Assembly (NCBI GenBank): GCA_012295275.1
Contig: CM022679.1
Location: 1,984,001 to 2,048,000 of the forward strand
From: Chrysomallon squamiferum
Lineage: Eukaryota > Animalia > Mollusca
Direction of reading: 5' to 3'
DNA length: 64,000 nucleotides
A model generated the notes under the pieces. It was given only the letters and a program-made list of their open reading frames with translations. It searched no databases and had not been told where the DNA came from. A program made the position numbers and the translations under genes. Shown here piece by piece: positions 7,647 through 59,653 of this stretch (within the stretch, counting starts at the first letter, position 1; every line of letters starts with the position of its first letter).

Positions 7647-7715
<69 letters not shown>

Positions 7716-10700: not shown

Positions 10701-12025
10701 AACCCTCGACAAGTCAGTTACCTTTCAGTTTTATTTTTAAACAATTTCGTCTCTTTATTTTAGACCATTTATTGCTGTTTTGCACAAAATCCATCATTTT
10801 AGTAAACAGAAATCATTGAAAATGTGTCGACAGTTTGATACTGTTTGATTATTATTATTATTATTGTTTTGTTGTTGTTGTTGGTGTTATTGTTGTTATT
10901 ATTACTGTTATTATTTTATTATTATTACAGTTATTTTTATATTATTTTAATATTATTATTACAATTATTTTTACATTGTTATTATTATTTTGTTATCTTA
11001 TTATTACTGTTATTACCACTATTACTACTACTATTACTATTACTATTATTATTATTACTATTGTTGTGTGTACAGGCTGATAGATGGGGTGAACATAACA
11101 AGTTCAGATGAACACATGTGGCTGGTTCCATTCACAGAAGGTCAGGATCACACTGTCACTGTGAGTTTTACTCAACAGGTCCTGCTCACAGGACTCAGAC
11201 TATGGAACTACAACAAAAGTCCTGAAGACACATACAGAGGAGTAAGTGTTATATGTAGTTGTTTGTATGTAGGTCAGTCATTTATTTGGTGCTTATGAGG
11301 GGGATTGTGTATGGGGTGGATAGCTGTGTGTGGGTGGCCATTAGGTTTGCACTGGGGGATTGTATTTGTGTGTATTTGTGTTTGTGTGTTTGCATGTGTG
11401 TGTTTGTGTGTGTGTGTTTGTGTGTGTGTGTGTGGTGCATGAATATGCATATGGTCTGATAGGCTTTATAGTAATTTCTTGAGATATTTGAGAAATAGTG
11501 CAAGAGAGAGAAATAAGAAGGGAAAAGCTGATAGAAAGGAGAAGAAAGAAAGGTTTAAAAAATATTAGATTTAAATATATTAAGTTTTTTCATGTCAAGT
11601 AGTTTGAGGTAGTTTCATATAACATATTATTAGCATACAAATAAATTATTAGTCTTTTTTTTAAGCATGTATTATAAACAGTGACAAGATGACTGTTAAT
11701 ATTTAATATAGCATTATTAGTAACCGGCACTGTAATAAATATACTCGCATTGTATTTTTTATTTACTTCTATATATATATTAATTTGTTCATCCATCCAG
11801 TCATGTAAAATAATTTGTTGTTTCAGGCTCGAATTCTTCATGTAAAAGTTGACGGATGCCAGGTGTCGCCAGCAGACGGCTATCTGATCAGAAAAGGACC
11901 TGGCAACTGTCACTTTGACTTTGCCCAGGAAATCAACTTTCAGACATACCAGGCTCCACAAAACAGCTACCCTGTATCGTAAGTTAATTTTTGTTTTTAG
12001 TTTTTCAGTTTTTCTTTCATTTAGT

Positions 12026-12081
<56 letters not shown>

Positions 12082-15000
12082 TATTTTTGTACTTTCTTTT
12101 CCTATATTTTGTTTATACTTCTTGTTTTCTTTCTCTCTCTCACTTCTTTTTCTTTCTCTTTCTGACTCTTTTTGTCAAGTGTAGAGCTGTAACTGTCATA
12201 AAAATAAGATTGATAATAAATGTGTTATTTCTAATTTCAGAATGCCTGGAGACTCAGGACTGGAGTATGAAGTTGTACAGATGCCTTGTGGATGTATCCT
12301 TTATAAACTCTTCAGTAATATTTTTTAACTATCTTGTCCTCACTGTATGTGATAGGTGTCAGTATGGGGCATGTCTGTAAGACTATAAATCTATGCTTAT
12401 ACAAGGTGTGTGTGTGTTTCTGTATGTGTTTGAGTAAGTCCTGGTTTGTGTGTGTGGGTAAATGTGTGTTCATATTGCTATATATGTTATGAATGCTATA
12501 TTTCTGTGTAAGTGTATATTTCAAATACAAAGTGTGTTTCTTAACACAGAAAGTTATCTACCAACTGCAGCTGTTTTCTACGTGGGGAGATCAGTATTAC
12601 ATCGGTCTGAATGGACTCGAGTTCTACGATTCTTGTTTTAATCTCATACAACTGATGGACAACAGTAAGTTCTATATTATTCTTAATACTCTTGTTCTGT
12701 TTTTTATATTACTGTTGTTATTATTATTATTATTATTATTATGACTTCTTATTATTGATATGATTGTTATTATTATTATGACTGATCACTGTTATTGTTG
12801 TTGTTATGATTATTATTATTATTAATCTGACTCTGAAATTTTGTTTTGTCAGACATCACTGCATATCCAGACAGCGTCAACGTGTTGGATAACGTACACA
12901 ACGATGTGCGCACACCGGATAAACTGATTGACGGAGTAAACAGTACAACAGACGGAAGACACATGTGGCTGGCTCCAGTTCTACCAGGAACAGTCAGTAT
13001 TTTTATATTTATTATACAACATGGTATGTACATCACAGATCACAGTTCTACCAGGAACAGTCAGTATTTTTATATTTATTATACAACATGGTATGTACAT
13101 CACAGATCACAGTTCTACCAGGAACAGTCAGTATTTTTATATTTACAACATATAATGTACATCATAGATCACAGTTCTACCAGGAACAGTCAGTATTTTT
13201 ACATTTACAACATGGTATGTACATCACAGATCACAGTTCTTCCAGGAGTAGTCAGTATTTTTATATTTATTATACAATGTGTTACGTAAATCATAGACCA
13301 CAAAAGGTACCTATACTTATACATGCATATCATTTTAGTCTAATCTTTGCTTCTCTTACATTCTGTCTTTTTCAGTCTGACTCTCTCTATATCTCTCTAT
13401 CCACTCTTTGTCTCTCTGTCTGTCTGTCTATTATTTATCTGTCTCTCTCTCAGGTTCTAAAAAAAAAATTTTGATTAAAACAATAGCCCTTATTGAAGCT
13501 GATATATTTTTTAAGATGTTTTTGGATTATCTGTTTTTCTCACATTTTAGATGAATCGTGTGTATGTGATATTTGACCAGCCAACCAGCATTTCAATGAT
13601 AAAAATCTGGAACTACAGTAAGACGCCAACTCGAGGAGTGAAAGACTTTGCAGTAAGTTGTCTCTGTCTTTTAAACCCTGTGCTAATTTTATAACTGAGA
13701 ATAAGATCACTGACATGCTAAATAGTTTGTTACTTCATAAAATGTTTTTAGATGAAATATCTCATTTTAAATGTTTATTTAAAACTTACAGAATTTTTTT
13801 TTTTTTTTTTTTTTTTGTGACTTTCGTTTCCCCCTCTCCGCCTTTGGTTGATGATATATTGTACTTAAGTTTCTCAAAAACTTAAAATATTTAATAAAAT
13901 AACATTTATGTTCTTTAAAGGAAATTTAAAATGTGACAGTTTTTACATAACTTGAAGTTTTAAATACCTAGAGAACTTTTTAAACAAATGTTTAATTTAT
14001 AGCATTAATTTAAAAAAATAATAATAATAATAATAATAAATAATAAAAATAAGACGTTTTAAAATGTTCTGCCGATATTAACAACTAGTTTAGCATGTTG
14101 TAGTTTTTTATTAAAAAGAGTAGCTTCCATAATCATATAAAGACTATTGGGGTTGTTTTTTTTTGTTTAAATTGTCGTGGTGTAAAATTGTTTACGGGCA
14201 ATGTGTAAGAAGTTTAACTGTCTGTGCAGCTGCTGGTGGATGATCTGCTCATCTACAACGGCTGTCTGAGAATGGTGCCGCAGGGAGCACGCGGAATCCT
14301 GCCCACGTGCGAGGGCACGCAGCCGTACCACACTGTTCTCTTCACCAACAACAAGGAAATTCTTAAACGAGAGAAAAACACAATCATCAGGTATTTTCTG
14401 TTTAAGAAATTAATCTGTGCTCTGTGTTTGTATGAGTGAGAGAGACAGAAAGACAGACAGAGAGAGAGAAAAAGAGAACAGAAAGAAAGAAAGGGTACGA
14501 TAAGAAAGTAGTACGAAGATAAAAAAAAATATGAATATGTAGGCTGTTTTAGGTTGTTGGGGTTTTTCTGTTTTATCATTTCCTTAACTTTTTTCAATAT
14601 TTATTTTAACTTTCTGTTGCAGTAACCAGCCACAGGACCAGGACGTTCAGCTGTTAAATGACAAGAAAATTGTCACAAAGTATTCAGATCCTAAAACTGC
14701 ACAAATGGGAAAACCGGCCAACCAGGGTAAGAACTCAGTTAAACTTTAATAATAAAACTGACATTGTTCATTATGTTAAATTATTCTTTTCATTACCAAA
14801 CACAAATTAGAATTAAAAGAGAAACTTGCTTTCCTCCACTAATAAATTATATAATTTCAAATATATATATTATCTGGTGAATAGAAGACAACAGTAATAA
14901 GAATAATAATAATAAAAAACCATGAACAGCCATAATGGTAATAGAAATAACAATAAGAACAAGAATAATGATAATAAAATTATGTAGATTGGTTAGTTTA

Positions 15001-24620: not shown

Positions 24621-27600
24621 CCGTTGTAAGTTGATTTGACTAAACATAAAGACACTAGTAAACAGACAGTCTTAATTATACGCCAATATTAATACACTAA
24701 TGTGCTTGTTGTTTATTAGACAATGCGCTAATATTTTGTACCTTCACCATAAAAATGTTCAATGAATTTTGCACTTATTTATCCAGGTAACTTAAAGTAT
24801 AATTACGTTCTTGCATATCAGTAATTTGCATATTAGTCGCACAACATTCTAACAACTGCTCCAAGCGTTTATTTTTATAAGTCTTTATAAATACATTCCT
24901 GATGTTTATTAATATACTTAATATAGTTAATAGGATTTAAGGCCCGATTGATTGGTGATATTATTACATGCATCACTGAAACTCTGAATGCGTTCCTTTG
25001 TGACGGAAGCCAGCAACTGATGTGGTTTGCATATTTTCCATGACCTCAACTTACACAGCAGTGAACTGCCATTGTTAAAATATTTGCTTGGCTGATACAA
25101 GCAACTGAACATAAATTAATAAAATAGACCAAAAAACAAATATATATATATATATATACTATACTAGCCAGTATTATGATTATTACACTCTTATTACATA
25201 TGTAATTATTTTGCACAAAAGTTTCAAGCAATTGCTTTTTAATAAATATGTTATTTATAAATATGTGATAAATAATTTATCAGATGTTGAAATATAAAGT
25301 AATTCTAGAGTATAGGATAACAATAATATTTAATTCTTGTCATCACTGTAATTCTGTCTGAAACAGTAGTTATTAAGCTTTAATTATTATAATAATAATC
25401 ACTTTAATAATTATTTTATTTTCATTAACTTTTTTAAGAACTCTATAAATAATTTTGAAGGTTGGTACCATCTAAATTGATACTTGTCACAGACCTGCAA
25501 TGGATTATGTACACACACAGATAATGGTGAACCCTTGTGCTTATTGATATGTGTACAAACATATTACTGATAGGTATGAATTGCTGGAAAATGATTAACA
25601 TGCTATTATGCAACAGTATATAGATAGATAGATTGATATTGACATACCAAACCTGAAGTAAAATTAGTCAGACAGGAAATAAACAACCAAACATCACACC
25701 TTAATCATTGACACAGACACATAATAATAATTACTATAGCTTACCTTATCTGAAGTAAAGTGGCAGAACAAATAGCTGCCTCTCATATATTGTGCTGTTA
25801 AATCCAAAATGAGGTCAAATTCATATTATAATACTCTTACAGTTGATTACAGCTACAGTTCAGGTCAGTGACCAGCTTCAAAGAAAATAGGTCAAAACAG
25901 TAAAAGGTGGAGATTACAGTGCACTATTAATAGATTCATACAGAAATGTATCAGTCATAATTTTTAATTATGTTTATTTATATTAGTCTTCATCAGGTTA
26001 ATTCAATCAATGCACAGTTAGTTTGATGAAAATAAAATGGTTAAAAAATAAACTTATCACATAAACTTGACATATAAGCCTACTTCTAAGTAATATTTAC
26101 TGATGTCTAGACTTTTATAAGAATAAAGTTTGAAAATAAAATAGTATGGTTATGAGAAAGACATTACATACATAGAAAAGTAAAAATATCCCAATAATTA
26201 TTTTCTTTTCAGAGAGTGAAAAAAAAAGTTGGATGAAACTAAACATTACTCTGTTTTCAATGATGAATTTATTACTATTATTATATTTATCTTATTTTCA
26301 GAAGTTTAACAGTTGAAACCAACAAAAACTGGAAGGGAAATGCCATTTAGTAAATTAATTGATTCATCATGGACTCGAGAAGTTCAATGTTTGCATACTG
26401 TGCGACAAGCCTGGCGTTCACGATGTTGTCAAGCACATTCACATTTTACTATGTGAAAGTGTTTCTGAACCAGTACCACATTGACGAGAAATGGTTTCAC
26501 TTTGCTCAGATTCTCTACCTTGTCTGGAACGCCATCAACGACCCACTGTTTGCTTACTGCCAGGATACCTACCAGTCAAAATTCACTCAAACCCGCAGAC
26601 ACAGCATCCTGTACACAGCTCCGCTCTTTTCCATCTCCTATCTTCTAGCTTGGTTTCCATGGAAATCGGAAGGGATCGTCACTGGCTTGCACCTAATCCT
26701 GTCTCTGTGTCTTTATGACACAATGTTTACTTTCATTGGTTTGGCCATGTGTTGTCTGTTCACAGAAATTGCTATAAGTCAGAGAGATCGAGTTTTGTTG
26801 GTGCGTTACTCTCACATTGCAAGTCTTCCAGGGTCTTTCAGCGTCTCTTTGTGTGAATACTTCTCTGACAGTCTGAGAAACTACCAGGGTTTCCAGGTGG
26901 TGACTGTGGCCATTGCAGTTGTGTCATGTTCATTGATGATCTGGACTGGACTGTATGCTCACACACATTACGACATTCAAAAGATGGAAAAGAATGACAG
27001 AGAGATTGAAGTTCAGCATGAAAAAGCAAAATCCTCCATATTAAAATTGACTTGGAATATTCTGTCAAATCGAAACTTTCTTTCTTTTGTTATCACAAAC
27101 TTTTGTCAAGAATTCCACAGATCTTTTTTATTCAGCTTTATTGCCATTATTTCTGATCAGCTCATTTCTGAAACTGAGGTTCCACTACACATCAGAAGTA
27201 CCTTTTATGGATCTCTTAATATAGTGTCATCGGTAAGATATTTTGTTAGAAGTACTACATTTACTATGTAGTAGCCATAAATCTATATATCACTAATATG
27301 TTGTGTGTGTGTGTGTCTGTGAGAGAGAGAGAGAGAGAGAGTTTTATTTTTAATTCCAGTCAAAGAAGGCTTGTGAGTAGATTAGATGAGTAATTCTAAC
27401 AAATTTGACTGGAAGTGAATCCTATTAAAATATGTGATTATTTATCAGAATAAACTGTAATTATCATTTAATATTATGTCCAACAAACCAAAAACACAAA
27501 TATTTTATATAGTTACGATACTTGAAAAATGTACTGAAAGCCATGTCACTCCAGTCCCAAGCTCACCACATAAATGGTCACGTGCCAGTATTAACATTTG

Positions 27601-29744
27601 TACATTCTGTGTATTATTTTAAAATGTATTTCTTACATCATATCTTTAAGTTATGATATATTTATAACACAATATGTTGTTGTTGTTTTTTTACAGGTGG
27701 TTGTGATTTTTGTGTCAACAACTCTAGTTAGAAGATTTGGATATTTCACTGTTATTCGATCAAATTTTTACTGGAAAATTTGCTCCAGTCTCTGTATTCT
27801 GTGTGTCGGGAAAAACCATCCATGGATTCTCATGATTTATTTTCTTATTGAGAGGTAAGAAGATTATGTACATTTGTTTTTCAAATCAAACATTGAAATA
27901 AAATACATATAAATTCATTAACATTTTGATAAACTATTTGTGAATTAGTCTGATTAAAAATAAATATGTAAATAAATAAATAAATGAATGAATAATAATA
28001 TGATGATGATGATGATTAAATCATTGTATTTGCTATTTAATTGTTAAAAAATTACATGTATTTGGAGTGTAAAACTTGCTTATGTTTTCTAATTACCATT
28101 ATTATTATTATTATTATTATTATTAATCATTTATTGTTATTATTACTATATTATTATTATATATTTTACTTTATTTATTATTAGTAATTATTATTATTAT
28201 TATTAAAAATCAAATAATTTTGTTAGTGCTGTATATTCAGGTTGTTGAAGTAACATATTTATTTTTATTAAATTATCTCAGACATTACCTATAATTACTT
28301 TAAGCACAACAAATAAACATTTATTATTTTATTTTTCAGTGCGTTCACAAACAGCACATTTTCTCTGTTTAACATGCCACTGTCTGACGTTGTTGATGCT
28401 GACATGGCAAAACACAATCGTGCGTAAGTAACCTTTACGTTTATAACTGAAATAGATTTTTTTAATGTGAAATATATATAGCTGCATCAGTGTAAATAGT
28501 TTGTGAACTTTTGAACATAATAGTTTCTATAAATTAATTATATATCTAGAATTTTAAATGACAAAAGCATTTATATTATAATATATTATTGAAAACCAAA
28601 AATAGTATATAAAACAATAGAAAAAAAAACTTATTTGTAAGAAATGTTATTAAAAACCATAAATAACATCAATAAATAGCAAATGAACAGCTTTGGTTTT
28701 GTTGCTCGCTTTTATTTTTTAATAACACATAAAAAAAAAACATTCACTGGAGAAAAAGTATTTTGTAATACTAATAATTTATACATTAATCCAAATCCAT
28801 TTTTAGAAAAAATCCACAATATTAAGAACATTTATATATAAATCATAAAACCTAAAATCAATTTTAAATTTCTTTAAATTTCTACAAAAAGAAAAAAAAT
28901 CATTAGACAAAATATATTTTAAATCATAATAAATATATACATCAAAATCATTTTTATAAAAAAGTAAATACCTTTTATATATATATATATAAATCATAAA
29001 AACTAATATCATATTTCTAATACCTATTTAGACACCCACTTACATCAATGGTGTTTGGTACAAACGCTCTCGTCGTTAAACCAGCTCAGTCACTCTGTCC
29101 TATGATGGTTGTGGCCATAATCAACCGCTTTGGTTACGAGGATTTCCGCAAGAAGACTATCAGCTCTAGCCAACTGGAGGAGCTGAAGGATGGGATGTTT
29201 CTAATAGTGTGGTGTCTGCCGCTTGTTATTGGAATAATTCAGTTAGTATCGTGGTCTTTCTATACACTCAGAAACCAGTTTCAGACGACTGATGTTGTCA
29301 GTGTTGAAACGTAAACATTCTTCTGTAAACTGAATTTAATCAACTAAGTAGCTTTATAAAGTACTCCACTATAGTAAAATGCAGTTCAGTTGAACATTAT
29401 AACTTTTTTGTTTGTTAAGTATACACTTTCTGTACAGCTGAGATATTTGTTTGTGACTGTGTTTATGTATATACTTGTATGCGTGTATCACATATTATTG
29501 TTGATTTTTTATTTGGTTTTTCCTGATTTGTTTGGAGGTTTTTTTCCCCCAAAAAAGCATAAACCTAGGTTTTAATATAGAAAGGTGCTAAATTTACTTA
29601 TTATTTATTTATTATATTGATGATTATTGCAAGATTTTGCATTAATTTCTGAAGAATATATTAAATTTGAGACTAATCTAACCATTCCATTGCCTTGATA
29701 CCTATATTGAGACATTTACTATATACACACATACACACAAGCAT

Positions 29745-34934: not shown

Positions 34935-35511
34935 TTCTGATTATTGTTACTTGTCAGTATTTGTTTCAATATTATCTTTTTTATGACTATATAAAAAGTA
35001 GTTGGAAATTATTGTACGATTGTGTAAAAAGTAATTAGAAATAACTGTATGACTATGTAAAAGTACTTAGAAATACAAAATGCTAAAATGGAATAGAAAT
35101 TGTCTGAAATATGTTCCTATTTTTTAACTTCCATTCACTGAAAACCAAATACGAAAGAAATTACCTTCACGACCAGATTCAACAAAACGGAAAATACCCG
35201 GAAATTGTCGACAAAGATAGATAACTCGGATATGGAAGCTGTCAAATAATATACGAAACAACAGATGCCATAATATCGTTACACATAATTTCAACTTGGT
35301 AAACTATTTTACTAACAAATTAAAACTAAAGCATTATTACACGGAAAATCTGAACGTGGACTTACATGACAGGATCTTCCCATGTAGATCTAGTAATAAG
35401 TTGTGTTTGTGTTGTGAATTTGTTTTGGTGGGAAAAGTACTCCTCATTTTCAGAAGTTTAACAGTTGAAACCAAAAAAATTGGAAGAGAAATGCCATTTA
35501 GTAAATTCATC

Positions 35512-38500
35512 ATGGACTCAAGAAGTTCAATGTTTGCATACTGTGCAACAAGCCTGGCGTTCACGATGCTGTCCAGCACATTCACATTTTACTATGTGAA
35601 AGTGTTTCTGAACCTGTACCACATTGACGAGAAATGGTTTCACTTTGCTCAGATTCTCTACCTTGTCTGGAACGCCATCAACGACCCACTGTTTGCTTAC
35701 TGCCAGGATACCTACCAGTCAAAATTCACTCAAACCCGCAGACACAGCATCCTGTACACAGCTCCGCTCTTTTCCATCTCCTATCTTCTAGCTTGGTTTC
35801 CATGGAAATCGGAAGGGATCGTCACTGGCTTGCACCTAATCCTGTCTCTGTGTCTTTATGACACAATGTTTACTTTCATTGGTTTGGCCTTATGTTGTTT
35901 GTTCACAGAAATTGCTGTAAGTCAGAGAGATCGAGTTTTGTTGGTGCGTTACTCTCACATTGCAAGTCTTCCAGGGTCTTTCAGCGTCTCTTTGTGTGAA
36001 TACTTCTCTGACAGTCTGAGAAACTACCAGGGTTTCCAGGTGGTGACTGTGGCCATTGCAGTTGTGTCATGTTCATTGATGATCTGGACTGGACTGTATG
36101 CTCACACACATTACGACATTCAAAAGATGGAAAAGAATGACAGAGAAGTTGAAGTTCAGCATGAAAAAGCAAAATCCTCCATATTAAAATTGACTTGGAA
36201 TATTCTGTCAAATCGAAACTTTCTTTCTTTTGTTATCACAAACTTTTGTCAAGAATTCCAGAAATCTTTTTTGTTCAGCTTCTTAGCCATTATTTGTGAT
36301 CAGCTCATTTCTGAAAGTGAGGTTCCGCTATATATCAGAAGTACCTTTTATGGATCTCTTAATATAGTGTCATCGGTAAGATATTTTGTTAGAAGTACTA
36401 CATTTTCTATGCAGTAGCCATAAATCTGTGTGTGTATGTTTACACATATACATAATTTTACTTTTAATTGCAATCAAAATAGGTCTGTTAGCAGATTTAA
36501 TTAGCAATGTGTGCAAATTAGACTCTGAAATATTGGGATTCCATCAAAACTGGTAGTGGAAACCAATTTTATAATATGGAAGATCTATTCAAAACATAAT
36601 TAAAAGAAAACAAATTATTTATTTTTTTAATGAAATTCATTGGCTTTAAATAAAGTAGGTGTTTATTCTTTTGTAATTCATTCTTCTAACAAATTATATT
36701 TGTGTCACTGGAATGATTAACAGTTTTTATGTGAATATATAGTATTGTTTGCTTTATCTCAACATGTATGCAATCTTCATGTTACATTAACAACAATAGA
36801 ATATAAAACATATTAACAAAATGTTTCTAAATAGTACAATCTATGAGGTATATTAATAACATCTGTACAATCTTTATATCAATTAACAATATATTTCAGT
36901 ATAAACATCTTTACATTCTGTGTGTTAATTTATCAATGTATTTTTATGTGATCTATTTCAGTTATGATATATTAATAACACTGCATGTTGTTGTTTGTTT
37001 TTTTACAGGTGGTTGTGATTTTTGTGTCAACAACTCTAGTTAGAAGATTTGGATATTTCACTGTTATTCGATCAAATTTTTACTGGAAAATTTGCTCCAG
37101 TCTCTGTATTCTGTGTGTCGGGAAAAACCATCCATGGATTCTCATGATTTATTTTCTTATTGAGAGGTAAGAAGATTATGTACATTTGTTTTTCAAATCA
37201 AACATCAAAATGAAATTCATATAAATTGAATAACATTTTGAAAAAGAGTTTGTGAATTAGTCTGATTAAAAATAAATATGTAAATAAATAAATAAATGAT
37301 AATATGATAATGATAATGACTAATCATTGTATTTGCTATTTAATTGTTCAAAAATTATATGTATTTGGAATATAAATCTTATTTATATTTTCTAATTACA
37401 ATACTATTATTATTATTAATTAGTCTGATCAAAAATAAATAAATAATAATAATATGATGATGATGACTAATCATTATATTTGCTATTATTTTATATTTTT
37501 TATTTATTATTATTAAATATTATTAATAATTATTTATTATTATTGTTATGATTATTATACATTATTATTATTATTATTACTAAACACCAAATCATATTGT
37601 TACAGATGTATATTCAGGTTATTGAAGTAACATATTTATTTTAAAAAAATCATCTCTGATATTAAGTATAATTACTTTTAAATAAACATTTATTATTTTA
37701 TTTTTCAGTGCATTTACAAACAGCACATCTTCACTGTTTAACATGCCACTGTCTGACGTTGTTGACGCTGACATGGCAAAACACAATCGTGTGTAAGTAA
37801 CATTTACATTTATAACTGAAATAGATTTTTAACTTAATGTGAAGTGTATTTCATGTGTACATAATATAAATTAATATAAACTGAAAAATCTGCATCAATG
37901 TAAATAGTTGGTAAATATTTAAACATAATAGTTTCTATAAATTAATTATATACATTAGATTTTAAGTGACATAAACACTTTGTTATAAAATATTGAAAAC
38001 CCCAAAAGAACAAAAATTACCAAAATTAGAGTTTTAATGACAAAAAATGTTTATTAGAATAAAATAATATTGAAAACCAAAAATGGTACATATAAAATAT
38101 ACAAACAGACGACATAACCAAATTACGTCAATAAATAGCAAATGAAAAGCTTTGGTTTTATTTTTTAATAACACATTAAGTATACATAAATCAAAATCAA
38201 TTCAAAAAAAAAAAAAAAAAAACACAACATTAAATACATTGTATATAAATCATAAAATAAAAAATCGATTTTGAATTTCTTTATAAATTTTTAATACCCA
38301 TTTAGACACCCACTTACAGCAATGGTGTTTGGTACAAACGCTCTTGTGATTAAACCAGCTCAGTCACTCTGTCCTATGATGGTTGTAGCCATAATCAACC
38401 GCTTTGGTTATGAGGATTTCCGCAAGAAGACTATCAGCTCTAGCCAACTGGAGGAGCTGAAGGATGGGATGTTTCTAATAGTGTGGTGTCTGCCACTTGT

Positions 38501-38585
38501 TATTGGAATAATTCAGTTAGTATCGTGGTCTTTCTATACACTCAGAAACCAGTTTCAGACCACCGATGTGACTTTTAAAAGGTAA
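35512..38585 (+). CDS. MFSD13A: MFS transporter MFSD13A/TMEM180-like, copy 2 (in-frame upstream ATG at 35491 possible)
   Basis: Exons 35512-36375, 37009-37166, 37709-37792, 38306-38585. Intact frame and splice sites. Near-identical to copy 1 with about a dozen substitutions and a different C-terminus (TFKR vs VSVET). Confidence 0.87.
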
Positions 38586-46869: not shown

Positions 46870-49800
46870 CTATTCTTCTGGATTGAGGGAACATGGACGT
46901 CTAAACTCCTGGCCTAGTTCATGAATCCACTTGTTAGACACCCACTTTGTTCCAATAAGAACTGGACAGGCAGCATGTCGAGTGTCATAGATACCCTCAC
47001 CATTACGATACAAGTTGTGCCAGAATGCAGCAGAACCCTGGAAAGTACAGAAAATACTAGTAATGTACAAATAACAAAATACTAGTAAAGCAAAGTACAG
47101 AAGATAACAGCAATGTACAACATAGTAAATACTAGCAATGTAAAATATAGAAAATACTAACAATATAAAATATAGAAAATGTCAGTAATTTTAAATGTAG
47201 AAAATACCAGCAATGTAAGATGTAGAAAATACCAACAATGTAAAAATATAGAAAATACAAGCAATGTAAAATATAGAAAATACCCACATTGTGAAATATA
47301 GAAAATATTAGCAGTGTGAAAGTACAATTAAAACATGAGAAAAATAAATGCTGGCTCTTAATTTGCATCAGTACATACCTCACAAGTAACTTTCTGAACA
47401 GTAAAATTACATAATACATTTTATAGGTGTGTAGTGATCTCTAATATGGATTAATGTGCACATACATATATATATATTTTTTTTTTTATTGGTGTTTATG
47501 TGACTTGCTGTAAATTGTACCTTTCTAGGAAACACTTTTACTCCAATGTATGGGAAAACTGTGGCACCTCCAGCATCCACATCACTCATCTAAAAACATT
47601 TTTAGTAAGTTTAAAAAAACCCAGATATGTTTTAATACTTTCTTCTAAATAATATCTTTCTAATAATATAGACAACCTTTTGGTTAACGCTTTAGATATT
47701 TGTATGATGGACATTATTCTTATCAAATAAATTGAAAACATAATATTTTTATTAAACAATGAATAAGCTAATCCTTATGATGTTAAATATACTAAAAACA
47801 GATTTCAAAATAAAAACATGCCCTAAAAAAAAAAACTTACATAATTTAACCATGTAGCAATTCTGTTGCCAGTTCCTAATGATTTGAAAGCATCTTTTTC
47901 TTCTTTCTGCAAACAAAAGTGATATTTTGGATTTAAATAAAATATATATACTGCATTATTTTTCAAAGTAATTAAGATTTAGTGACTGAGAGTAAGAAGC
48001 AAATTATCCAACGAAAAATACATTTATAAATGGTAAAATTATAAAAATTAACAGAACTTCAAAAGGAAATAAAAACTGTAATGATCAAAATTAATATTAT
48101 TATTGTATTAATATATATAAATCTATGAGCAATTTCTAAAATGTGGATAAATCAAAAAAATATCTGTATAGATGCAAAAAAAACGTAACAGAAGAGTTAA
48201 AATATTTCAAAAACTGTATACAGTAATATTCTAAGAAATGTTTTATATTAAATACTGAGGCACTGTTTTGTAATTTATCGTATCCAGCAGTCTAGAAAAA
48301 GTACAGCTTCCCGTATCTATACACAACAAACATTGTATTCTAGAAATGCCACTGAAAAACTATTTTACTTTGTAACAAAAAGACTGGATGTTCTTACCCT
48401 AGCAAAGTCATAATGAGGTTCATAATGTCCACCAATTCCATAGTTTGCTACCTGGAACATAAAGTAAACTTATTAAGGAAATGGAATTATGAAAACATCA
48501 GGTTAATATAAATAACAAGAAAAATTTGTTTTATATTTCATAATGTACTCACAGACATTTGATCTAACTTCAGTTATTTTCTTTTGTAACTGCCATTTTC
48601 AAACAGCAGTGTTATAACAATACAGAGGTTGTAAGAACTTTAAAAACATCAGCCGATATTGAAATACCACATGTATACTGATAACCTGATTTTAGATACA
48701 TACACACACACTTAAATGTATATATAAGAAAGCATTGTCTTTGATCACATTGGCTTACTGCATAATGCAATATTGTCTTTAAACAGACTGGAACAATGTG
48801 ATTAATTATGTGTTGTGCCATGTTTGGCATGTAAAGGAATGGCCTTATCCTGGATCTTAAATGATGACTGCTCATGTCAGTGAGATTTTCTTTATTGTCA
48901 CTGTCTACAAGTTTATTAACAATCACAGACTGGTAAATAACTGTATGACAATATAAAAAATAGTTACAAAAAATATCTATATGACTGTGTAAAACAGTAA
49001 TTAAAAATACCTGTAAGTATTCAGCAGTGTCCAGAGTAAGACCAGTTATCGCTTCAATTCTTTTACAGATTCTCTCTACTATAGGATGATCAGATGACTT
49101 GAGCCAAGCACTGAAATACAAGTAACAGTGTGAAATTATATTCATCCTGAAAAAACACATATATACATGCATAGAGATACACAAAAAGGCATTCACACAC
49201 ACACACACACACAAACACACACATACAGGCACACAAACACAAAGACACATGCATGAACAAATAAAATAAATTCAGTTGTACAGAAAATCTTTTTTTTATT
49301 AAAAGACATATTCTGCCAAAATTAAACATCAGTATATAAAATAATATCCCCAAAACAAGCAGTAAATAAATAATGTAAGTTGTATAGTTGTGTACCTCTT
49401 GCTAACTCTGTAGGAAGCAGTTTCTAACTCTCCTGTTTTGGAGTTCTGAATTGTGGCTCTCATCAACTGAAAAACACAAAAACTAAACATTAACCTTAAA
49501 TTTAATTTGTCTCCTACTGTCCATAGAACCATTTATGAAAAATGTGATTGGAGGTAATGATAAAAATTATATCTTCCATGTTACACGTGCTGTGATAGTA
49601 GATAATGATGATAATGATATTAAATAATTTTAAAACATAAAAAACATCTGAGCATGTTATGCGTTCTGTGATGGCAGTAATGATAAAAGTTATAACACCT
49701 TATACAAGCTGTTACAGGACACTGTGATGAAAATGATTTCTTGTTAGAAATAAAAACTTTATATGTTACACATGCTGTGATGGAATTAATTATGAAGATT

Positions 49801-50297
49801 ATATCTTATAAGAAACAAAAATACCATAACATTTTACACATGCACTTATGAGAGTATTATAAGGAAGTAGGTTAAATACCTTAGGCATGGCCAGTGACTT
49901 GATGACCTCTATCTCTGTGTCACTTATTACATCGTGGTACATAACAATCTGAGGTGACAAATACACATCCTCCTCTTTAGCTGGCCTGATCACCAGGATT
50001 GGGTGGCGGTTGTTGTCAGTGTAGCGGCATCGTAACTTATGCTGGTCCTTCACCTCCTACAAGTAATCACAAAAATAGTGAGAAGAATTCTCAAAGTGGT
50101 GTGATTAAATAAGGATGGGATTTTGTTTTATGCTGGTTAATTCTCAATTAAATTTGAATTTGAACATACTGTTATGTTGTATAGTTTGTTACATATATAT
50201 ATTTTTATATTATTTTATAAATATTTTTATGTTATTTTATTATTATCACTTTGTTTTGATTTTTTGGGGTTTTTTTTTTTTTTTTTTTTTTTAAGGC

Positions 50298-50911: not shown

Positions 50912-53900
50912 TATTACTATTTTTTGGGGGGGATTTGTGGTTTATTATTACTGTATCATTACAGCACTGTATATATATTGTTATCATTATAAACTGAGAG
51001 ACAGACTGTAGTCCTTCTCCATTCCTTTCCTCTAACTCTTTACGGATACCTGAAGCTTTAAAAAAATATTTTACCAGAACATCCTCCCCGCGACACAGAG
51101 CTTCATAGTGCTTGAATTCTGCTGATCTCCTGTATTCATCGATGTTTGGTTCATTCTTGATAGGAACATCTTCCATATCACCTCGTCTTCCAGTCTTTTT
51201 TTCCTCATCCTCAATCATCTGTTCATAATACTTCTTGTTGTTCAGCGCCCTCTCATGGGCAGGATCTGTCAACAAGTGACATTCATATTTAGTTTAGTTA
51301 CAAGCATATACAAATTAAAAATATATAAAAAGATTTAAATAAGGCCCTAAGCTAGTGAAAACTCTGAAAGTTTAATTAAACATGTATTAACTGAGTATTA
51401 TGAGAAACAGCAAACTTTGAAGACAAATACTAATATAAAATATTGTGTAATATGTGCTAGAGAAATCATTAAAGGCCTAATATAACAAGTAAAAGATTGA
51501 GTATATACAAGATACAGACAACATGGAAGATCTAAAATAACAAGTACCAAAAGTAGTAGCTTGTTTAGTCCTGATTATAAGTAACAGATGAGAAAAAGAT
51601 AATGACTGAATCTGTCTGCTGCATCAGTTACTTTCAATGTGGACACATTTTTTGGCTGCTAAAGGAATGACTATGTAAAACACATTAAACTGCTAACAAT
51701 AAGGTTTTGTATATATCCCTACATTTAATATTCTGTCATTAAAAATATTCTAAATTATAGATTTATTATGCTGGATCTAGTTTTGGTTTTTATGTGTAGA
51801 TTGTTTCTGGAATGTTTTGGTTTTCTGTTTTTTTGTAGTTTGTTTTGTTTATTTTTGTGGGGTGGGGGTTTTGGCTGTGTTTTTTTTTCTCTTTTTTTTG
51901 TGATTTTTTCATGCAAAAACAATTTTTGTAAAATCTTACCCAGCAGTAATAATTCATTTGTCAAAGACAAAGCATGTCTCAGATTTCCTTGCTGAAAAAT
52001 AAAAACAGAGTGCAATTAATAATAAATGTTTTAAATATTATGCAATAAAAAATAAAAATAAATACAAAACAAACAAAAAAAAAATAATAATAATAAAATG
52101 TGTCTAAGCATTCATTTTGAACATTTAATTAAGAAAAATATACATATAATAATAAAATAGAAAACATTTTTTTATTATTAAATTATTTTATTTTACTTTT
52201 TTTTTTAACTAAATGACAACAAAGACTCTACATTCAAGTCATTTGAAAAAATAAATATCAGCCAGTTTTATGAAAAGTTCTGTAACAAGAACGAATTGGT
52301 GTCAAGAGTCCCACTGTACAAACAAGAGAGGAAAATGATCCAGGCTGATAACTGTAAATAATAAAAAAATTTATTCTAACAATCTGCTTCACTCAGCTGC
52401 ATTCTTTTTCTGCTTGTCTTGAAAAATGCAGACCGTAACATCAAAAAAAGAATGACGAACCACCTTCATCCATATTAATCGTTGATGTTGTTTGAAACAT
52501 AAATAATAAAATTCTACACATCAATATTTTATATTCTGAATACTAACAGATGCATTATAAGATATTCAGTATTATTATTATTATTTTTTTTTTTTCAATT
52601 ATTATATTGTTGTTATTGTTGGGGGTTTTTTTCATTGTTAGATTCAGCTTTCAACTTAACCTTTTTGTTATTTTATAACTAAGTCATAAGCTGTGACCAA
52701 AAGACAACTGAAAATTAGAATTATGAAACATTAAAAAAAAAAGAATATTTAAAACAAATTGTATATGGTGATTCTAATAATCAGAAAAGAACAAAAGCAA
52801 TTAAAGTAAAGATTTAAATGAAATGGTTCAAACTGAATTGTATGTTTTCAAATACAGTGATGTTTTGAATTGTAGGTGTGGTTGAAAAAGGTGGACAGTG
52901 TTTAATACAAAGGAGATCTCATAATGCAGTGCTAAGTTACAATGTTAATGAAAAGAGTGTTATCCAAGGAGGGGGATATGGTGAGGATGATGATACTTAT
53001 ATGTCTTAGTTTGTTTATCTTTTGAATGATTACTGTATACATTATTGTATAAGCATTAATTAATGGTAATGACAACATAAATTCCCAGTACATTATTCAA
53101 ATTCTGTCAATTAATAAATGAAAGTCAAATCACAAAGTATTTTATAAAGCTATTGTCAAAAATTATATATGGAAAATTTAATTTGATCTTAACGACGACA
53201 AGATTATATATACATTATCCATAAACTCCAAATCAATTATAATATTTTGAAATAAGACACATGTCAGAGCAAACTGAATATTAACCTTATTATATAGATA
53301 TTTTATTTTAGAAATGTAGGCAATGACTATACATTTACAACAATAATTATTATACATGGTAAACCAAATCCCCTTTCTTTTTTAGTTCAATAAACCATTA
53401 AAACAGTTTTGTAGATTAACAAGAGCTGATATTGAGTATAAATAGTGTTGTACTCTTGGCATTGACTGTTCCTGCAGGTGATCAAGGCTTACCATTGCTG
53501 TAGCATAGGCCGAGTAATCAAGAAGTTCAAATCGAGAAATAGTTTTGTTTTCCTCTTCTCTTTCCTTGTCAAGTGCTGCCTGCATCCACATGTACGTGTG
53601 GTAGTAGTCTTCAGAGTTGTAGGCAAAGCGACCCAACTGAAAACAGTCTTCCGCTGAACATGAGCAGAGAGAAGCCGAATGAATGAAAACAGTTGATGAC
53701 AACACTGAGGCAAACCATGCACTGTCTGCAAACCAGGGTCCAAAATGCAACAGAAGGGAATGCTGGGAAAGGGGAATGCTGGAGAGGGTATTGGTTGATA
53801 AGGAAATGCAGGATTGAATGGACAACCAGCGTTTATGGACAGGGGGCCAGAAGGAATGGTTTGGTTAGTTGATAAAAGCAGTTAGCAATGAGATGGGAGA

Positions 53901-55831
53901 TGTTTTCCCCCTTCTAATTTATCTTCTGTAACTAGTTTATGCAAACCTCAGACCGATGTTTTAAGCATTCATATTAGTCTTCTGTTATAACTAAACATGC
54001 AGGTACCAGTGTTGTGGTTAACTGTACAATCTAAAATTAAACCATTTCACAAAGAAGGATATAATCCAATGCAGAACTAGAAGATTTTAAATTGACAGGG
54101 ATTTAATATTTTATTTCATAGTTTGTGTTTGGCAGTATGTTTGTGTTCCTAGATGTGTACACGTGAAAGAAAACTTTAATGCCAAAATATTTTATTACCA
54201 ATATCTATGATATATTAAACAAGTTTTTTGTACGTGTATAACAGAGAGGAAACTTGCTTAAATTATTACATCACTGTTGTAATCAGCAGTAAGGACTATT
54301 ATTTTTATGTCAGCACTTTCCTAAACTCACACCACAGCCTTTCAGAAACCAGTAAAACAACAAAGACTGGGATGAAAACTAAGCCCTTGTAGAATTGATC
54401 TGACAGTCTGTCACATGTAATGAATGACATGTTAAGCATGTTTTCAGTAATTCTTATATTCAGTCATAATATCTGGATATTAATAATTCTATTTTAATTC
54501 TCTGTTCCAAATATACAGTTTTGAATGCATCAAATAATGTACATTTAATAATCAGAAGCAAACACACAAAAAACAAAAAAACCCAGTATTATCCATTTAT
54601 AATATTAAATGAATAAACATATTTTACCTGCAACAAAAGAAAAACAATTCCCTGCTTTGATTAAAGATAAAATAAAATAAAATTGTTATTAGGAAAAAGA
54701 CAATGTTATAAAACCAGGGTCACCAAAAACGAACCTTAAACAAAGAGAAAGCCATGTAATCAAGAATTTCGAGTTTTTTCTGCCTGTAATCCGACTGGTT
54801 GCTATCAAGACTTTTCAGTGTTTGTTCCATCCACAAAATAGAGTGTCGATAGTCGCCATCAACATATGAAAGTCTGCCAAGCTCAAAACATGAGTCCGCT
54901 GAAAATAAAGTAACAAATGGGAGGTGGGGAACATGCTCATACAGGCAAACCAACATGCTTGTACAATCTGGCAAACTGAACAAGGCTGGGATATCTGTAG
55001 GGTTTTTAGTAAGATATTCTCACACATAAAAACAACTAAACAAATTTGTATTTATTTCACAATACCTAAATTTTATACTCTTTTTTTTTTTTTTTGTTTT
55101 GATTACAGCTTTTTCTTTCTTTTTAGTCTGTTTTATGTTTTCAATAGTTTTATTTTTTTTTTATTCCATTTTTTTTTTTTTCTTTATATATAATGACAGA
55201 ATAAGAAATATGTTTATCATTTAACAACAGGTATATTTCATAAACACCCTTCCCAATCAAATATTTACACAGGAATTAATTTATAGATCATAAAAAAAAT
55301 GTTCATAGTTTCATTAAATACAGTTTCAAAATTATCTATTTAAAAAAAACACAAAAAAAAACAGCAACAAAAAAACAGAAAGCTACGATTTGAACTGTTA
55401 TTCCACATATTATTAATAAATATTTATTTTCAGAAAGACCGAACAATGAATTCTGCATCAGTTTTCCCACAGCTACATTTAATGTAATTATTTAACAATA
55501 TTAACAGTTAGTATTCTCACACATCACATTAACACAGGTTTACACACAGCATGCTTTAAACATGCATTATCTGACAAATGTTAGAAAAACAACAATTCTA
55601 TGTTAAACACTATTTGACAATGATTATAGTAATAATATCTGCCTATAATGTTTATAATAATGTTATACATAATTGATATAATTATTACATTTGCTATTTA
55701 TTAACATTTAAACATGAAAATACTGCTACATAATTTCACATATTAACACTTAGTATATTTTATATTAATTTATGATCTACTGTTATAAATAATGCTTAAA
55801 AATTAAGACTATTGCTATCAACTGTAATATA

Positions 55832-55862
<31 letters not shown>

Positions 55863-58800
55863 TATATTGCAATTAATAACAGACACACAAATATTTATAG
55901 ACTCTTCTAATTAACCTGCTGACTACCTCAAAAGTTTATTTTTTCATTAGACTTTCCAAGACATTAATAATAAACTTTTTTGTTGATCGCAAAATCAATG
56001 ATTATATTAAAATACACTAAGCTGAATAATTTTTCTAATTTATAATGTCAATAACATACAGCATTATTCTACTTTAAAGTAAAATCTCTCTCACTCACAC
56101 ACACAAACTGTTCAGAACATTAATCTACTGGTTTACTGCAATCTCTACCTGTCAGTGCAGATATCTGTCTGCCGTTGATGTCACCCTCTGCCAGTCGAGA
56201 TGTGTCCAGCTGGTAGGTGTCCTGTAGTCGCATGAACGCTGCAGCTACTCCGGCCAGGTCTTCGTAGTTTGGAAGGCTTTGACGGGAATTTTCTACTTCA
56301 CTCAGCAGAACTAGAACGAAGTAATAAAGACACATTTTGATATTAACATTCAACATATACTACAAGCAATAAGTTAAAAATGTTTTAACAGATATATACT
56401 AAAAGCAATATTAAATCTGCTCCATAAACAACTTTATTAGTTAGCTGTAAGAAATCATCTAAATGTAACTTCCTACAAACAGGAAAGCATATACCATAGC
56501 CTTTGATATCCAACTAAGTAAGGTAAGTGGACATCAACAGGAATTGAATCTGCAAGCCACAGACTGATAAACAATAATTATAATTTACTAATACCAATAT
56601 TCATTAAATCTTAAACTAAACTAAAATAATGTTAATCTTATATTTAAAGTACCCAGATTTTGTTAATTATTTTTTTTATGATGATGCTAATCATCATCAT
56701 TATTGCTGTTTTGTTCTTATTGTTGTTGTTGGTGTTGGTGTTGTTATTGTTATTTATGTTGTCATTGTTTTATTTTCATATTCTGTCTTTTATAAAGATT
56801 GCACAATAGGAAATATGTCATATTATTTACCTTGGTACATCTGATTGTCATTCAGTATGCTGGCAACATTTCTATCCCAGTCGAGAGTGAAACGTTTGAT
56901 AAATAAAAATGCACCGATTGGGTTGGCCATGTAACGTACTGGGTCTTTCAAAGCATTATTACTATGAGTTTCCATGTCATCAGCAATTCTGTGTGAAAAA
57001 AGGAAAAACAAGGATGAAAATATCTGTTATGTGTTACTACAATCACTTTCTGTATCTTCAGATACCACTACACACATTTCACAGACAGCCTCAATTCTAA
57101 GAATTATTAAATAATTTTGCTGGTCATGTTCTTTTTTGTTTATTGTTTTTAAGATTACTAAATTTTTACATTATTTCTAATGAAAACTTTGAAAATTACC
57201 TAGTAACTCTAGAGGTACACAAATGCACTATATTCATTTTGTGGAGGTCTTTTTTGTTGGTTTTTATTTTACTGAATAAAATACCAGGTAGACTAATGGT
57301 TGCACTTATTTGGTAGTATAGAAATTATGCTAATTTCTAACAATTTTTATAATTTATAATTCAAACCTTATTCTTAATTTAATCTCTCTCTTCACAGATA
57401 CCATCGTAACAAGATAAATAAATTTTAAGAATCATTTTATAAAAAACTTTGTAACATAATATTCCAAAATAATAATAATAAAAAAATTTTAAATTCCTAA
57501 TTTCAAAGATTTTATTCACTATAATGAGCCACATCACCATTCAGAGATTATTAGAACAATAAATATTGTAATAATCTCCTTTCTATTACAGTATAATGAC
57601 AAATATGGTTTATTATAAAAACAATCCTACACAGATGCATGCGAGGAAATGAGTTACACCTCTTCTATTTATGAAAGTAATTTATTAACAAACAGCCCAT
57701 TACACAGATAATTCACAGCAACATAAAAACGACTGTTAGCGATATCAGCTAGCAAGGAAATAATTTCCTGTCAACTGCCTCCGAGCATTCTTTCCCATCA
57801 ATCTAAAAACTGAGACATCTTCATTCATGTCATTATATACAACCTATTATTAATATGTCATTACACACAGCCTGTTATTAATTTAATACAGTTACTTTAG
57901 ATTTGGCCTCAAGCCTGGTTATAACTAATTTTCTCAAGAAAAAAAAAAACCTTAGGTGTCTGTCAATGCACGTTTATGGCAATGTTACATGGGATACTTT
58001 GATATAATGCTAATGTTAATTATTATCATGTAATTTTCTCTTTTTAAACCGGATTATAGTTAACTAATCACAATGCTGTTTTTAAGAAGTATTGTACCTT
58101 TTTTTATGATTTAGGAGAAAACTATTTGCAAAAAAATAATAATAATAAAATATGTATTATTATTATTATTTATATTATTATTATTAATCATTTAATTTTG
58201 TTATTATTTTGTTTGATATTGCCGTATTATGAAAATCAATGATATAAAGTGTTATTGTTTAATGAGGTTAAATATAAAACATTTACATAAATCACACAGA
58301 CAAACACACACACACACACACACACATATATTCAATTGGTTTATTTTATATATAAGTTACAACAGTTATATATATATATTAGATTGTTTTAGCTTGTACT
58401 AAATTGGGGGAAGGTGAAGGACATACTGCTAAAAATGATCCAAATGCATATAAGCATATAGTAGCTTTTTTCACAATAATAATTAATCTTGTTTTTAATA
58501 ATTATTTATCTTACTTAAAAGTATACATGCATGAATGAGTTCTACATATGTCAAACTGTCCTTCATCAAATTCCCAACTGTTCTGTTACCTTGGTTAACT
58601 CAGCGTAAGCACATCAAACATGTAGTCAAAATAAAGTTATATTTTCCAGATGGCTGTTTAGACTAATTACTAATTACTGTTTAGATTTATCTAAGAAATT
58701 TTATTTATGCTGGTACTAACAATCATTTTAACTATATTTTTGTGATCACTTACTTCTGATTAATGTTAGCGTGTGTTATTAAACAAATACATTTTGCAAT

Positions 58801-59653
58801 CTTGAATAAGATTGTTTCATTATCCTATTTTCAAATCAGTTTCAAATCAAACTTTTATCTTCTGATGAACACTTCTGTAGGATAAACATGGCTGGCTTTG
58901 TTCTGCATGTACTGTAATAATCTGTATGTTTTAAACTGTTTATTTACTTGAAGAAAATCAATAATATATGACACAGTAAGTGTTTTAAACATTTCCTAAT
59001 ATTAGTATTTTGAAATTAGGTTTTATTTAAAGTTCTGTTTGTTTGTAATATTTAAGCTGTGACTGAATTTCATGTTACTCATAATTATTAAAGTGTACCA
59101 GCAAAATATCTAATTTTATTTACAAAAAAATAATATGTTCATTCATTTACTAAAGGTATTGTTAAAACTGTCTAGAAGGCCAAACTGTTAATTATGAAAC
59201 AACATATCAATCAATTTTAAAAACTACAATTTCTCAATTTCTTAAAGGAAAAACACGGCTGCATATCAGGATACCAGTACAACGTTGCATAACAATTAAT
59301 TGTTTGGTAATCTTATAGTCTTGCCACGCATAAAACTAATTATACTCAGTTTAAAAGTATTATGAAGAAAGTCTTTATTTTTAAAATTGTGAATAAATAA
59401 ATAAATAAATAACATCTGTAAATTTTATAAATTATGTATATTTATTTGTAATTTTTTATTAAAGAAAAATGCAATTTTACCTTTTTAGTTTTTCCAGTTT
59501 TTCTTCTTCGCTGTGTATATAATTCTTCATTGTTCTTGCAATGTCTCTTTCGGCATATAATGCATTTTCTAGGTGTGCAACAGAAGTAAATATTTCGGCC
59601 TTTGCTAAAACAATTACCCAAAGCAATGGTAAAATTCGTTGGTACATGTCCAT
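46870..59653 (-). CDS. P4HA1: Collagen prolyl 4-hydroxylase alpha subunit (P4HA1/2-like, ~533-534 aa)
   Basis: Exons 59653-59481, 56988-56831, 56310-56149, [54898-54735 or 53653-53493], 51991-51940, 51265-51075, 50056-49880, 49466-49396, 49110-49011, 48451-48398, 47906-47841, 47589-47521, 47037-46870; all phases are consistent. Signal peptide then EIFTS; LQDTY; NYGIGGHYEPHYD (HxD); TRHAACPVLIGTKWVSNKWIHE (distal His and 2-oxoglutarate-binding Lys). The paralogue assignment among P4HA1/2 is nominal. Confidence 0.95.
47042..47330. repeat. ~29-bp degenerate minisatellite abutting the last P4HA acceptor
   Basis: Repeated aaaatactagcaatgtaaaatatag-like units run up to the pyrimidine tract of the acceptor at 47038-47039. 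Confidence 0.8.
53493..53653 (-). CDS. P4HA alternative exon 4b (peptide-substrate-binding/TPR region)
   Basis: tgttcag|...|gtaagc, 161 nt. Encodes AEDCFQLGRFAYNSEDYYHTYMWMQAALDKEREEENKTISRFELLDYSAYATAM. Confidence 0.9.
54735..54898 (-). CDS. P4HA alternative exon 4a (peptide-substrate-binding/TPR region)
   Basis: ttttcag|...|gttcgt, 164 nt. Encodes ADSCFELGRLSYVDGDYRHSILWMEQTLKSLDSNQSDYRQKKLEILDYMAFSLFK. Confidence 0.85.

Follow-up and report, generated by a model that had tools for sequence, protein, structure and literature searches.

The Prolyl 4-Hydroxylase Gene and Its Doubled Exon

A collagen prolyl 4-hydroxylase (P4H) alpha gene lies on the minus strand of a 64,000-nucleotide (nt) stretch of the Chrysomallon squamiferum genome (GenBank assembly GCA_012295275.1, contig CM022679.1, positions 1,984,001 to 2,048,000), which is referred to here as the window and from whose first letter positions are counted. 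The gene comprises 13 exons, and the exon at position 4 is doubled, with two homologous versions, 4a and 4b, placed in tandem in the part that encodes the peptide-substrate-binding (PSB) domain (Table 1). The pair is real, is transcribed in both forms and is conserved across two mollusc classes.

The encoded protein is identical to the Gigantopelta aegis model at 453 of 533 positions and groups with it inside the mollusc clade (tree support 100/100 and 99/98). The domain order, consisting of N-terminal, PSB and 2OG-Fe(II) catalytic domains, is given by Pfam PF08336, PF23558 and PF13640 on the Gigantopelta orthologue, which is 85% identical, and the P4H protein has PDB matches to 7zsc, 4bta and 6evl. 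The window translation has the HxD...H iron ligands, encoded by exons 10 and 13, as aligned to 7zsc via the Gigantopelta orthologue; the role of the HxD motif in iron binding is established (bioRxiv 2023.06.28.546674).

Both tandem exons, which an earlier note made from the DNA letters had singled out, are confirmed as homologous units of 164 and 161 nt with AG acceptors, GT donors and open frames, entering in phase 1 and leaving in phase 0. Their peptides are identical at 17 of 54 positions, with an alignment score of 94, where the best of 5000 shuffles reached 41, and each of them matches Pfam PF23558 TPR_P4H above cut-off. The introns around the pair measure 1250 nt (exon 3 to 4a), 1081 nt (4a to 4b) and 1501 nt (4b to exon 5). 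As the same note had proposed, inclusion of one or the other exon gives a full-length protein, of 534 amino acids with 4a and 533 with 4b. Products with both exons stop after 276 amino acids and those with neither after 176; both kinds hit a premature stop in exon 5, and only the one-or-other forms are full-length. The two exons show features expected of mutually exclusive exons from tandem duplication, being adjacent, homologous, of similar length and identical phases, and spliced between the same flanking exons. A homologous twin was sought for every other internal exon of the gene and none was found. The 71-nt exon 8 is single, as previously claimed; the best alternative in its flanking introns scores -21 versus 110 for the exon itself.

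Table 1. Exons of the P4H alpha gene and groove residues encoded by the tandem pair
Feature	Position in the window	Strand	Evidence or remark
Exon 1, coding part, with start codon, N-terminal hydrophobic stretch and beginning of the dimerisation domain	59481..59653	-	42/57 identical to Gigantopelta protein
Exon 2, N-terminal domain	56831..56988	-	RNA loose end past exon 3 runs into exon 2 sequence
Exon 3, common upstream exon; donor 56149 joins either 4a or 4b	56149..56310	-	RNA joints
Exon 4a, type A, PSB helices H7-H9, 164 nt	54735..54898	-	Spliced in 4/4 RNA runs
Exon 4a residues (human mature alpha(I) numbering): Tyr158, Asp192, Tyr193 kept; Phe196, Phe199, Lys200	Phe196 54749-54747; Phe199 54740-54738
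Exon 4b, type B, PSB helices H7-H9, 161 nt	53493..53653	-	Spliced in 2/4 RNA runs
Exon 4b residues (human mature alpha(I) numbering): Tyr158, Asp192, Tyr193 kept; Tyr196, Ala199, Met200	Tyr196 53507-53505; Ala199 53498-53496
Exon 5, common downstream exon, helix H10; site of premature stop in the 'both' and in the 'neither' product	51940..51991	-
Exon 6, shared, helix H11: equivalents of Arg223, Asn227 and Tyr230, plus Gln233 (as human type II)	51075..51265	-	Gigantopelta orthologue aligned to PDB 2yq8, 4bta
Exon 7, start of catalytic domain	49880..50056	-
Exon 8, 71 nt, single in the window	49396..49466	-	Scallops have two alternative versions of the segment
Exon 9	49011..49110	-
Exon 10, iron-binding HxD motif	48398..48451	-
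Exon 11, single in the window	47841..47906	-	Two versions in oysters, three in annelid-like locus L007
Exon 12	47521..47589	-
Exon 13, coding part to stop codon, distal iron-binding His	46870..47037	-

Transcription of Both Exons and the Choice Between Them

Evidence from RNA comes from four runs of one study, in the form of assembled contigs and not of reads, and carries no tissue or stage labels. The junctions 56149-54898 and 54735-51991, which include exon 4a, are present in all four runs, and the junctions 56149-53653 and 53493-51991, which include exon 4b, in two of them, with exact coordinates and canonical ends. Two of the runs contain both forms in a single sample. Run X1 has one contig of 216 nt that contains 4b and reaches 26 and 29 letters into the exons on either side, and in two other runs contigs of 1357 and 2888 nt cross exons 3, 4a and 5. 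The shorter flanks of the 4b joints, of those 26 and 29 letters, fall below the 31-letter bridging rule, and the joints are marked 'between: not known'. Runs X2 and X4 showed no exon 4b, and neither this absence nor contig depth is taken as an expression level. No 4a-4b joint and no exon 3-5 joint is listed in the four runs, although contigs drop rare forms. The mutually exclusive use proposed in the earlier note is thus supported by the presence of both junction sets in RNA and by the incompatibility of the frames, at the resolution of contigs, which do not reach to strict exclusivity or to levels.

It might be argued that one of the exons is a decaying or never-used duplicate, or that the tandem is an assembly artefact, given that 4b is unseen in two of the four runs and that its joints are short-flanked. 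This explanation is largely refuted and now hardly credible. Both exons are spliced in RNA, and exons 4b and 4a are identical to their Gigantopelta counterparts at 47 of 53 and 43 of 54 positions, respectively, as constitutive exons are. Moreover, one contig of a DNA-like run, in which none of the spliced joints occurs, spans both exons; because this contig is independent, the tandem is not an artefact of the assembly. It differs from the window at 24 sites over 2445 nt, none of which falls within exon 4a or 4b (P about 0.03 under a uniform spread), and the single 4b difference listed in an RNA run falls on the third position of a threonine codon and is silent.

Simple steric exclusion is unlikely, because an intron of 1081 nt parts 4a from 4b. 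A candidate duplex between a docking site at the start of intron 3 and selector sequences was no better than its shuffles (20/40), and a search of the region for inverted repeats returned only low-complexity A/T runs. The pentamer GCATG, a Rbfox-type motif, is present 6 times in the three introns, where 2.4 would be expected (p 0.03), a weak signal picked after looking. In addition, an 11-nt motif is found just after 4a and before 4b (approximately 54722-54712 and 53740-53730, minus strand) and a 10-nt motif before each exon (approximately 54951-54942 and 53717-53708, minus strand). In 300 shuffles neither motif turned up twice, and both were chosen by eye. Similar intron sequence may also be present in a relative, to judge from the reading frame that lies upstream of exon B in protein P0002. 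By default, exclusion is ascribed to the incompatibility of the frames, which is observed, together with decay of the mis-spliced forms, the products with both or neither exon being predicted targets of nonsense-mediated decay.

Conservation Across Molluscs

Isoforms that swap the PSB segment were found in all five multi-member mollusc protein clusters compared, of 11 clusters in all. They are Gigantopelta XP_041362601/602, Littorina XP_070185458/459, Saccostrea cucullata XP_062599117/118, Ylistrum XP_060074823/824 and Argopecten XP_069123787/788. The six non-mollusc clusters (Dimorphilus, Menopon, Glandiceps, Cimex, Ctenocephalides and one more) held no swap isoforms (0/6), which is not proof of absence. 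The gene models of Aplysia and Bulinus carry both segments in tandem, A ahead of B, fused into one protein, and are read as mis-annotation. In Plakobranchus only type A was seen, and two further reading frames, one of type A and one of type B, probably derive from one contig, as each lies on a contig of 7686 nt. A further look-up of protein clusters yielded the names of non-mollusc proteins only. The A and B labels were assigned from sequence for five species, and only the window and the two fused gene models reveal the order of the exons. Conservation of each window exon with its Gigantopelta counterpart (4a with isoform X1, 4b with X2) lies within the range of the constitutive exons. The long-term retention of both exons that had been proposed from their divergence is supported by these isoform pairs in snails and bivalves. 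As to novelty, the pair is already contained in the automatic NCBI annotation of five molluscs, which goes some way towards fulfilling the note's own ground for refutation by existing annotation. These entries are unlabelled predictions, and neither the event nor its conservation or function was found described.

The two types are told apart by a small set of residues, numbered as in the human protein from an alignment to 2yq8. Type A is marked in all eight mollusc pairs by Glu152, Phe196, a Tyr or Phe at 199, and Lys200; type B has Tyr196, position 199 being Ala, Gly, Met or Leu and position 200 Met or Val. Residues 158, 192 and 193 are kept in both types across the mollusc pairs, with one Phe193.

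Word-based searches for homologues were sparse, exon 4a alone giving 0 of 6 candidates and 4b 2 of 12, and a full-length search, likewise sparse, named no cephalopod, chiton, brachiopod or further annelid among its 48 matches. The heterobranch type-A exons (proteins P0005, P0006, P0016 and P0017) are lengthened between helices H8 and H9 by acidic inserts about 10-45 residues long. Alternative segments also occur elsewhere in bivalve models: at exon 8 in the scallops Ylistrum and Argopecten (P0059-P0064), apparently in the place of the human P4HA1 pair, and at exon 11 in the oyster Saccostrea (P0052-P0057), apparently in the place of the human P4HA2 pair.

Origin of the Exon Pair

The gastropod-bivalve split is of Cambrian age. 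An exon tree of 50 rows and 53 columns, with 7 rows excluded as near-duplicates, sets the 10 A rows on one side of a branch when the labelled rows are considered, and does likewise for the 9 B rows (78/88 and 81/87; 84% and 82% of bootstrap trees). When the last six columns were removed to limit the circularity of A/B labelling, like-with-like comparison beat cross pairing in 26 of 28 species pairs, including 13 of 15 gastropod-bivalve pairs, which are not independent of each other. A single ancient origin before the snail-bivalve split is therefore favoured by the sequences as likely, not proven.

The opposite possibility, that several independent duplications in gastropods, bivalves and an annelid lineage were followed by convergence of the shared residues, seems unlikely, in view of the four covarying positions (152, 196, 199 and 200) in eight mollusc pairs, of the like-with-like result just given and of a best tree that groups by type. 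It can nevertheless draw on approximately unbiased (AU) tests, which do not reject a gastropod-only (p 0.26) or bivalve-only (p 0.18) duplication, and on the higher A-B identity in scallops (31-32/53) than in the window (17/53). The P4H gene family, moreover, duplicates other exons readily, and most genomic loci that span the region are single-copy.

A scan of metagenome contigs yielded 80 loci, two of which (L007 and L011) have two copies of the PSB exon; among the genomic loci that span exon 3 to exon 6, one of eight (L007) has two copies and the other seven have one. L007 is considered annelid-like because it falls in a clade with Dimorphilus (100/99). Its two copies, each 161 nt long with AG/GT ends, are identical at 95 of the 161 bases, and the downstream one has Ser199. 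The L007 copies fail to pair off with mollusc types A and B (once the end columns are removed, 3 of 8 comparisons are positive), a further point on the side of separate duplications. The second copy of L011 lies at a contig end, with an in-frame stop near it. In L007 the exon-5 equivalent is also doubled (52 nt, AG/GT; 4669-4720 and 5154-5205) and the exon-11 equivalent is tripled (11037-11637), so that this gene may carry three clusters of alternative exons. Other annelid-like contigs have a single exon copy where it is spanned, with F196/F199/K200 in L049 and Y196/Y199/M200 in L065 and L071; the two kinds of gene (L049 and L038 versus L065 and L071) are possibly paralogues.

The Substrate-Binding Groove

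The location of the pair, placed by the earlier note in the N-terminal part of the PSB domain, is borne out, as both exons match human PSB structures and Pfam TPR_P4H and encode helices one to three of the five in the domain. AlphaFold models of the two Gigantopelta isoforms, used as stand-ins that confirm the fold only, have a predicted local distance difference test score (pLDDT) of 87.7 and 86.7, and assign three helices to the exon and two to the shared ones. The type-B model matches human PSB-I entries at about 2 Å; for the type-A model, unlike the type-B model, isolated PSB entries are not among the Foldseek matches listed.

In the accessible text on the human domain, the P8 pocket is formed by Tyr158, Asp192, Tyr193, Tyr196 and Arg223, the P5 pocket by Tyr196, Tyr199, Asn227, Tyr230 and Phe231, and P1 by Tyr230 and Tyr233 (PMC12433258). 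Tyr196 stacks on a peptide plane (PMC12433258), and changes of Tyr to Ala in the groove raise the Michaelis constant Km (PMC12433258, PMC13377042). Phe196 could stack on the peptide plane as Tyr196 does.

The Tyr/Phe contrast that the note had stressed stands as a description, LDYxxF in 4a and LDYxxY in 4b, but Phe196 is ordinary in the family. Among 142 family segments, taken from 141 of the 150 best matches to exon 4a, a query that tilts the set towards type A, 82 have Phe196, 59 have Tyr196 and 129 have an aromatic residue at 199. Since Phe196 is frequent whereas a non-aromatic 199 is rare in these segments, the switch at 196 is judged the milder one; as far as sequence comparison goes, the loss of the P5-pocket aromatic 199 in type B is the larger and rarer change.

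From One Gene to Two Predicted Enzymes

On balance we think it probable that the two tandem exons, spliced one or the other and of one origin before the snail-bivalve split, give rise to what are likely two enzymes with different grips on proline-rich chains. According to this model, type A, with Phe196 and an aromatic 199, would keep a complete P5 proline pocket, and type B, with Tyr196 and a small or aliphatic 199, would open or weaken P5; the P8 pocket (Tyr158, Asp192, Tyr193 and the shared Arg223) would stay intact in type B. With P5 altered and P8 kept, and one catalytic site common to both predicted forms, the switch would thus tune the affinity for long Pro-Pro-Gly or polyproline stretches and not the triplet chemistry of the active site. 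It would also tune which collagens or collagen-like proteins get anchored. As to the putative difference in substrate specificity between the two forms, our best inference is that they would anchor long proline-rich chains with different affinity, which would not copy the vertebrate I/II split.

Alternatively, both exons could be used and old and yet tune stability, folding or contacts with neighbouring domains or partners instead of peptide binding. The Gigantopelta isoforms differ at 36 of about 54 positions, most of them outside the five pocket positions encoded by the exon, and the P8 residues 158, 192 and 193 are common to both types. The connector between H8 and H9 varies in length and modelled structure, with long acidic inserts in heterobranch type A; this connector, however, varies freely within each type, and the positions that split A from B in all eight pairs (196, 199 and 200) include two P5-pocket residues. 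We regard this explanation as possible, if rather doubtful.

It has also to be considered that type B could serve non-collagen or atypical proline-rich secreted proteins, such as those of shell, byssus or venom peptides, leaving ordinary collagen to type A. Type A resembles the single-form insect proteins (F196, Y199), B is the derived state, and accessible text reports that a cone-snail P4H hydroxylates a conopeptide precursor (PMC10455749) and lists two P4H forms, of 573 and 564 amino acids, which may or may not differ in this exon, among the venom components of a conoidean (PMC11359391). Such a division of labour is nevertheless quite unlikely, as both forms are found in the same sample in two runs and B retains Tyr196 and the whole P8 pocket, as collagen-binding human domains do.

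Several points weigh against the model of two enzymes with different grips and one old origin. A non-aromatic 199 may be tolerated, as it is also present in 13 of the 142 family segments and in annelid-like proteins, P0009 and P0012 among them. The effect of losing the aromatic is deduced from structure, and the mutagenesis in the accessible text names Tyr193, 196, 230 and 233, not 199. The predicted difference in grip is likewise derived from comparing sequences and structures. On the side of splicing, the RNA evidence is that of one study, in contigs, with short flanks around 4b. As to origin, no branch that unites all A or all B is starred in the exon tree, the AU tests (35 rows, 53 columns, low power) reject no separate-duplication tree at all (p 0.14-0.26), and the types were named from sequence in five species, with exon order taken from the window and two gene models.

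The human isoenzymes differ in both the PSB and the catalytic domains, so that the two effects are confounded there. Because the two natural forms differ only in about 54 residues of the groove helices, and snails and bivalves have retained both of them, the function that the PSB domain serves becomes directly testable. Position 199 is flagged as a tunable site outside the coverage of mutagenesis in the accessible sources, and the mis-annotated Aplysia and Bulinus gene models are flagged as well. The class of mechanism is ordinary, and the isoforms were already present, unnoticed, in automatic annotation. A bolder conjecture, to which we give a low probability, is that a splice switch in the PSB groove dates from the mollusc-annelid ancestor, or arose twice to the same effect, and that loss of the P5 aromatic created a second enzyme for non-standard proline-rich proteins. 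In that case the gene would yield a natural enzyme pair with an identical active site, from which the purpose of the PSB domain could be read.

Other Genes in the Window

Two tandem genes for MFS_2-family transporters lie on the plus strand at 26363-29311 and 35221-38582. Their first large exons are 96% identical in protein, and the tandem is either a recent duplication or an assembly duplicate. An uninterrupted frame of 523 codons at 40341-38773 (minus strand), with HTH_psq, HTH_Tnp_Tc5 and DDE_1 domains, represents either a transposase or a domesticated transposase. Exons of a DUF4457 gene are found at about 2771-14436 (plus strand), and one or more exons of a COX6B gene at 22820-22611 (minus strand).

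Comparison with Known Systems

A full-text literature search, which reached few subscription papers, yielded no account of an exon pair in the PSB domain. The exon pair represents an undescribed placement of a familiar mechanism; the known splice variants of P4HA1 and P4HA2 alter loops of the catalytic domain. In the accessible text, the mutually exclusive exons 9a/9b of P4HA1 (also numbered 9/10) and 12a/12b of P4HA2 each give two full-length alpha subunits (PMC11868403, PMC9676403, PMC8373072). These vertebrate pairs belong to the same gene family and are spliced in the same one-or-other fashion as the window pair. Unlike it, and as the earlier note had stated, they sit in the catalytic domain (PMC9676403): the human pairs alter the hairpin loop and the betaII-betaIII loop, whereas the window pair swaps PSB helices H7-H9, and both human catalytic-loop exons have single counterparts in the window. 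The P4HA1 splice event has been reported as ancient (PMC8373072), with which the two exon-8 versions of scallops and the two exon-11 versions of oysters are consistent.

Human PSB-I and PSB-II, encoded by the paralogues P4HA1 and P4HA2, are likewise two versions of one TPR-like groove. The type I/II difference in this domain has been tied to Tyr233/Gln in helix H11 (PMC12433258), and the triplet specificity of the human isoenzymes has been traced to the catalytic site (bioRxiv 2023.06.28.546674). Position 233, which differs between PSB-I and PSB-II, is a constant Gln in the shared exon 6 of both window isoforms, so the idea that the snail does by splicing what vertebrates do with paralogues was overstated, as far as these sources go. 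Human type II has Phe199, as exon 4a does (PMC13377042), and neither human PSB form has Phe196 or is without an aromatic 199.

Two further systems resemble the window pair. The annelid-like locus L007 has two tandem 161-nt copies with the same splice phases, of which the downstream one also lacks an aromatic 199, but it differs from the mollusc pair in that both copies have Tyr196 and Met200 and the next exon is doubled too. The mollusc isoform models of NCBI exchange the same segment as the window pair and show the same two residue patterns.

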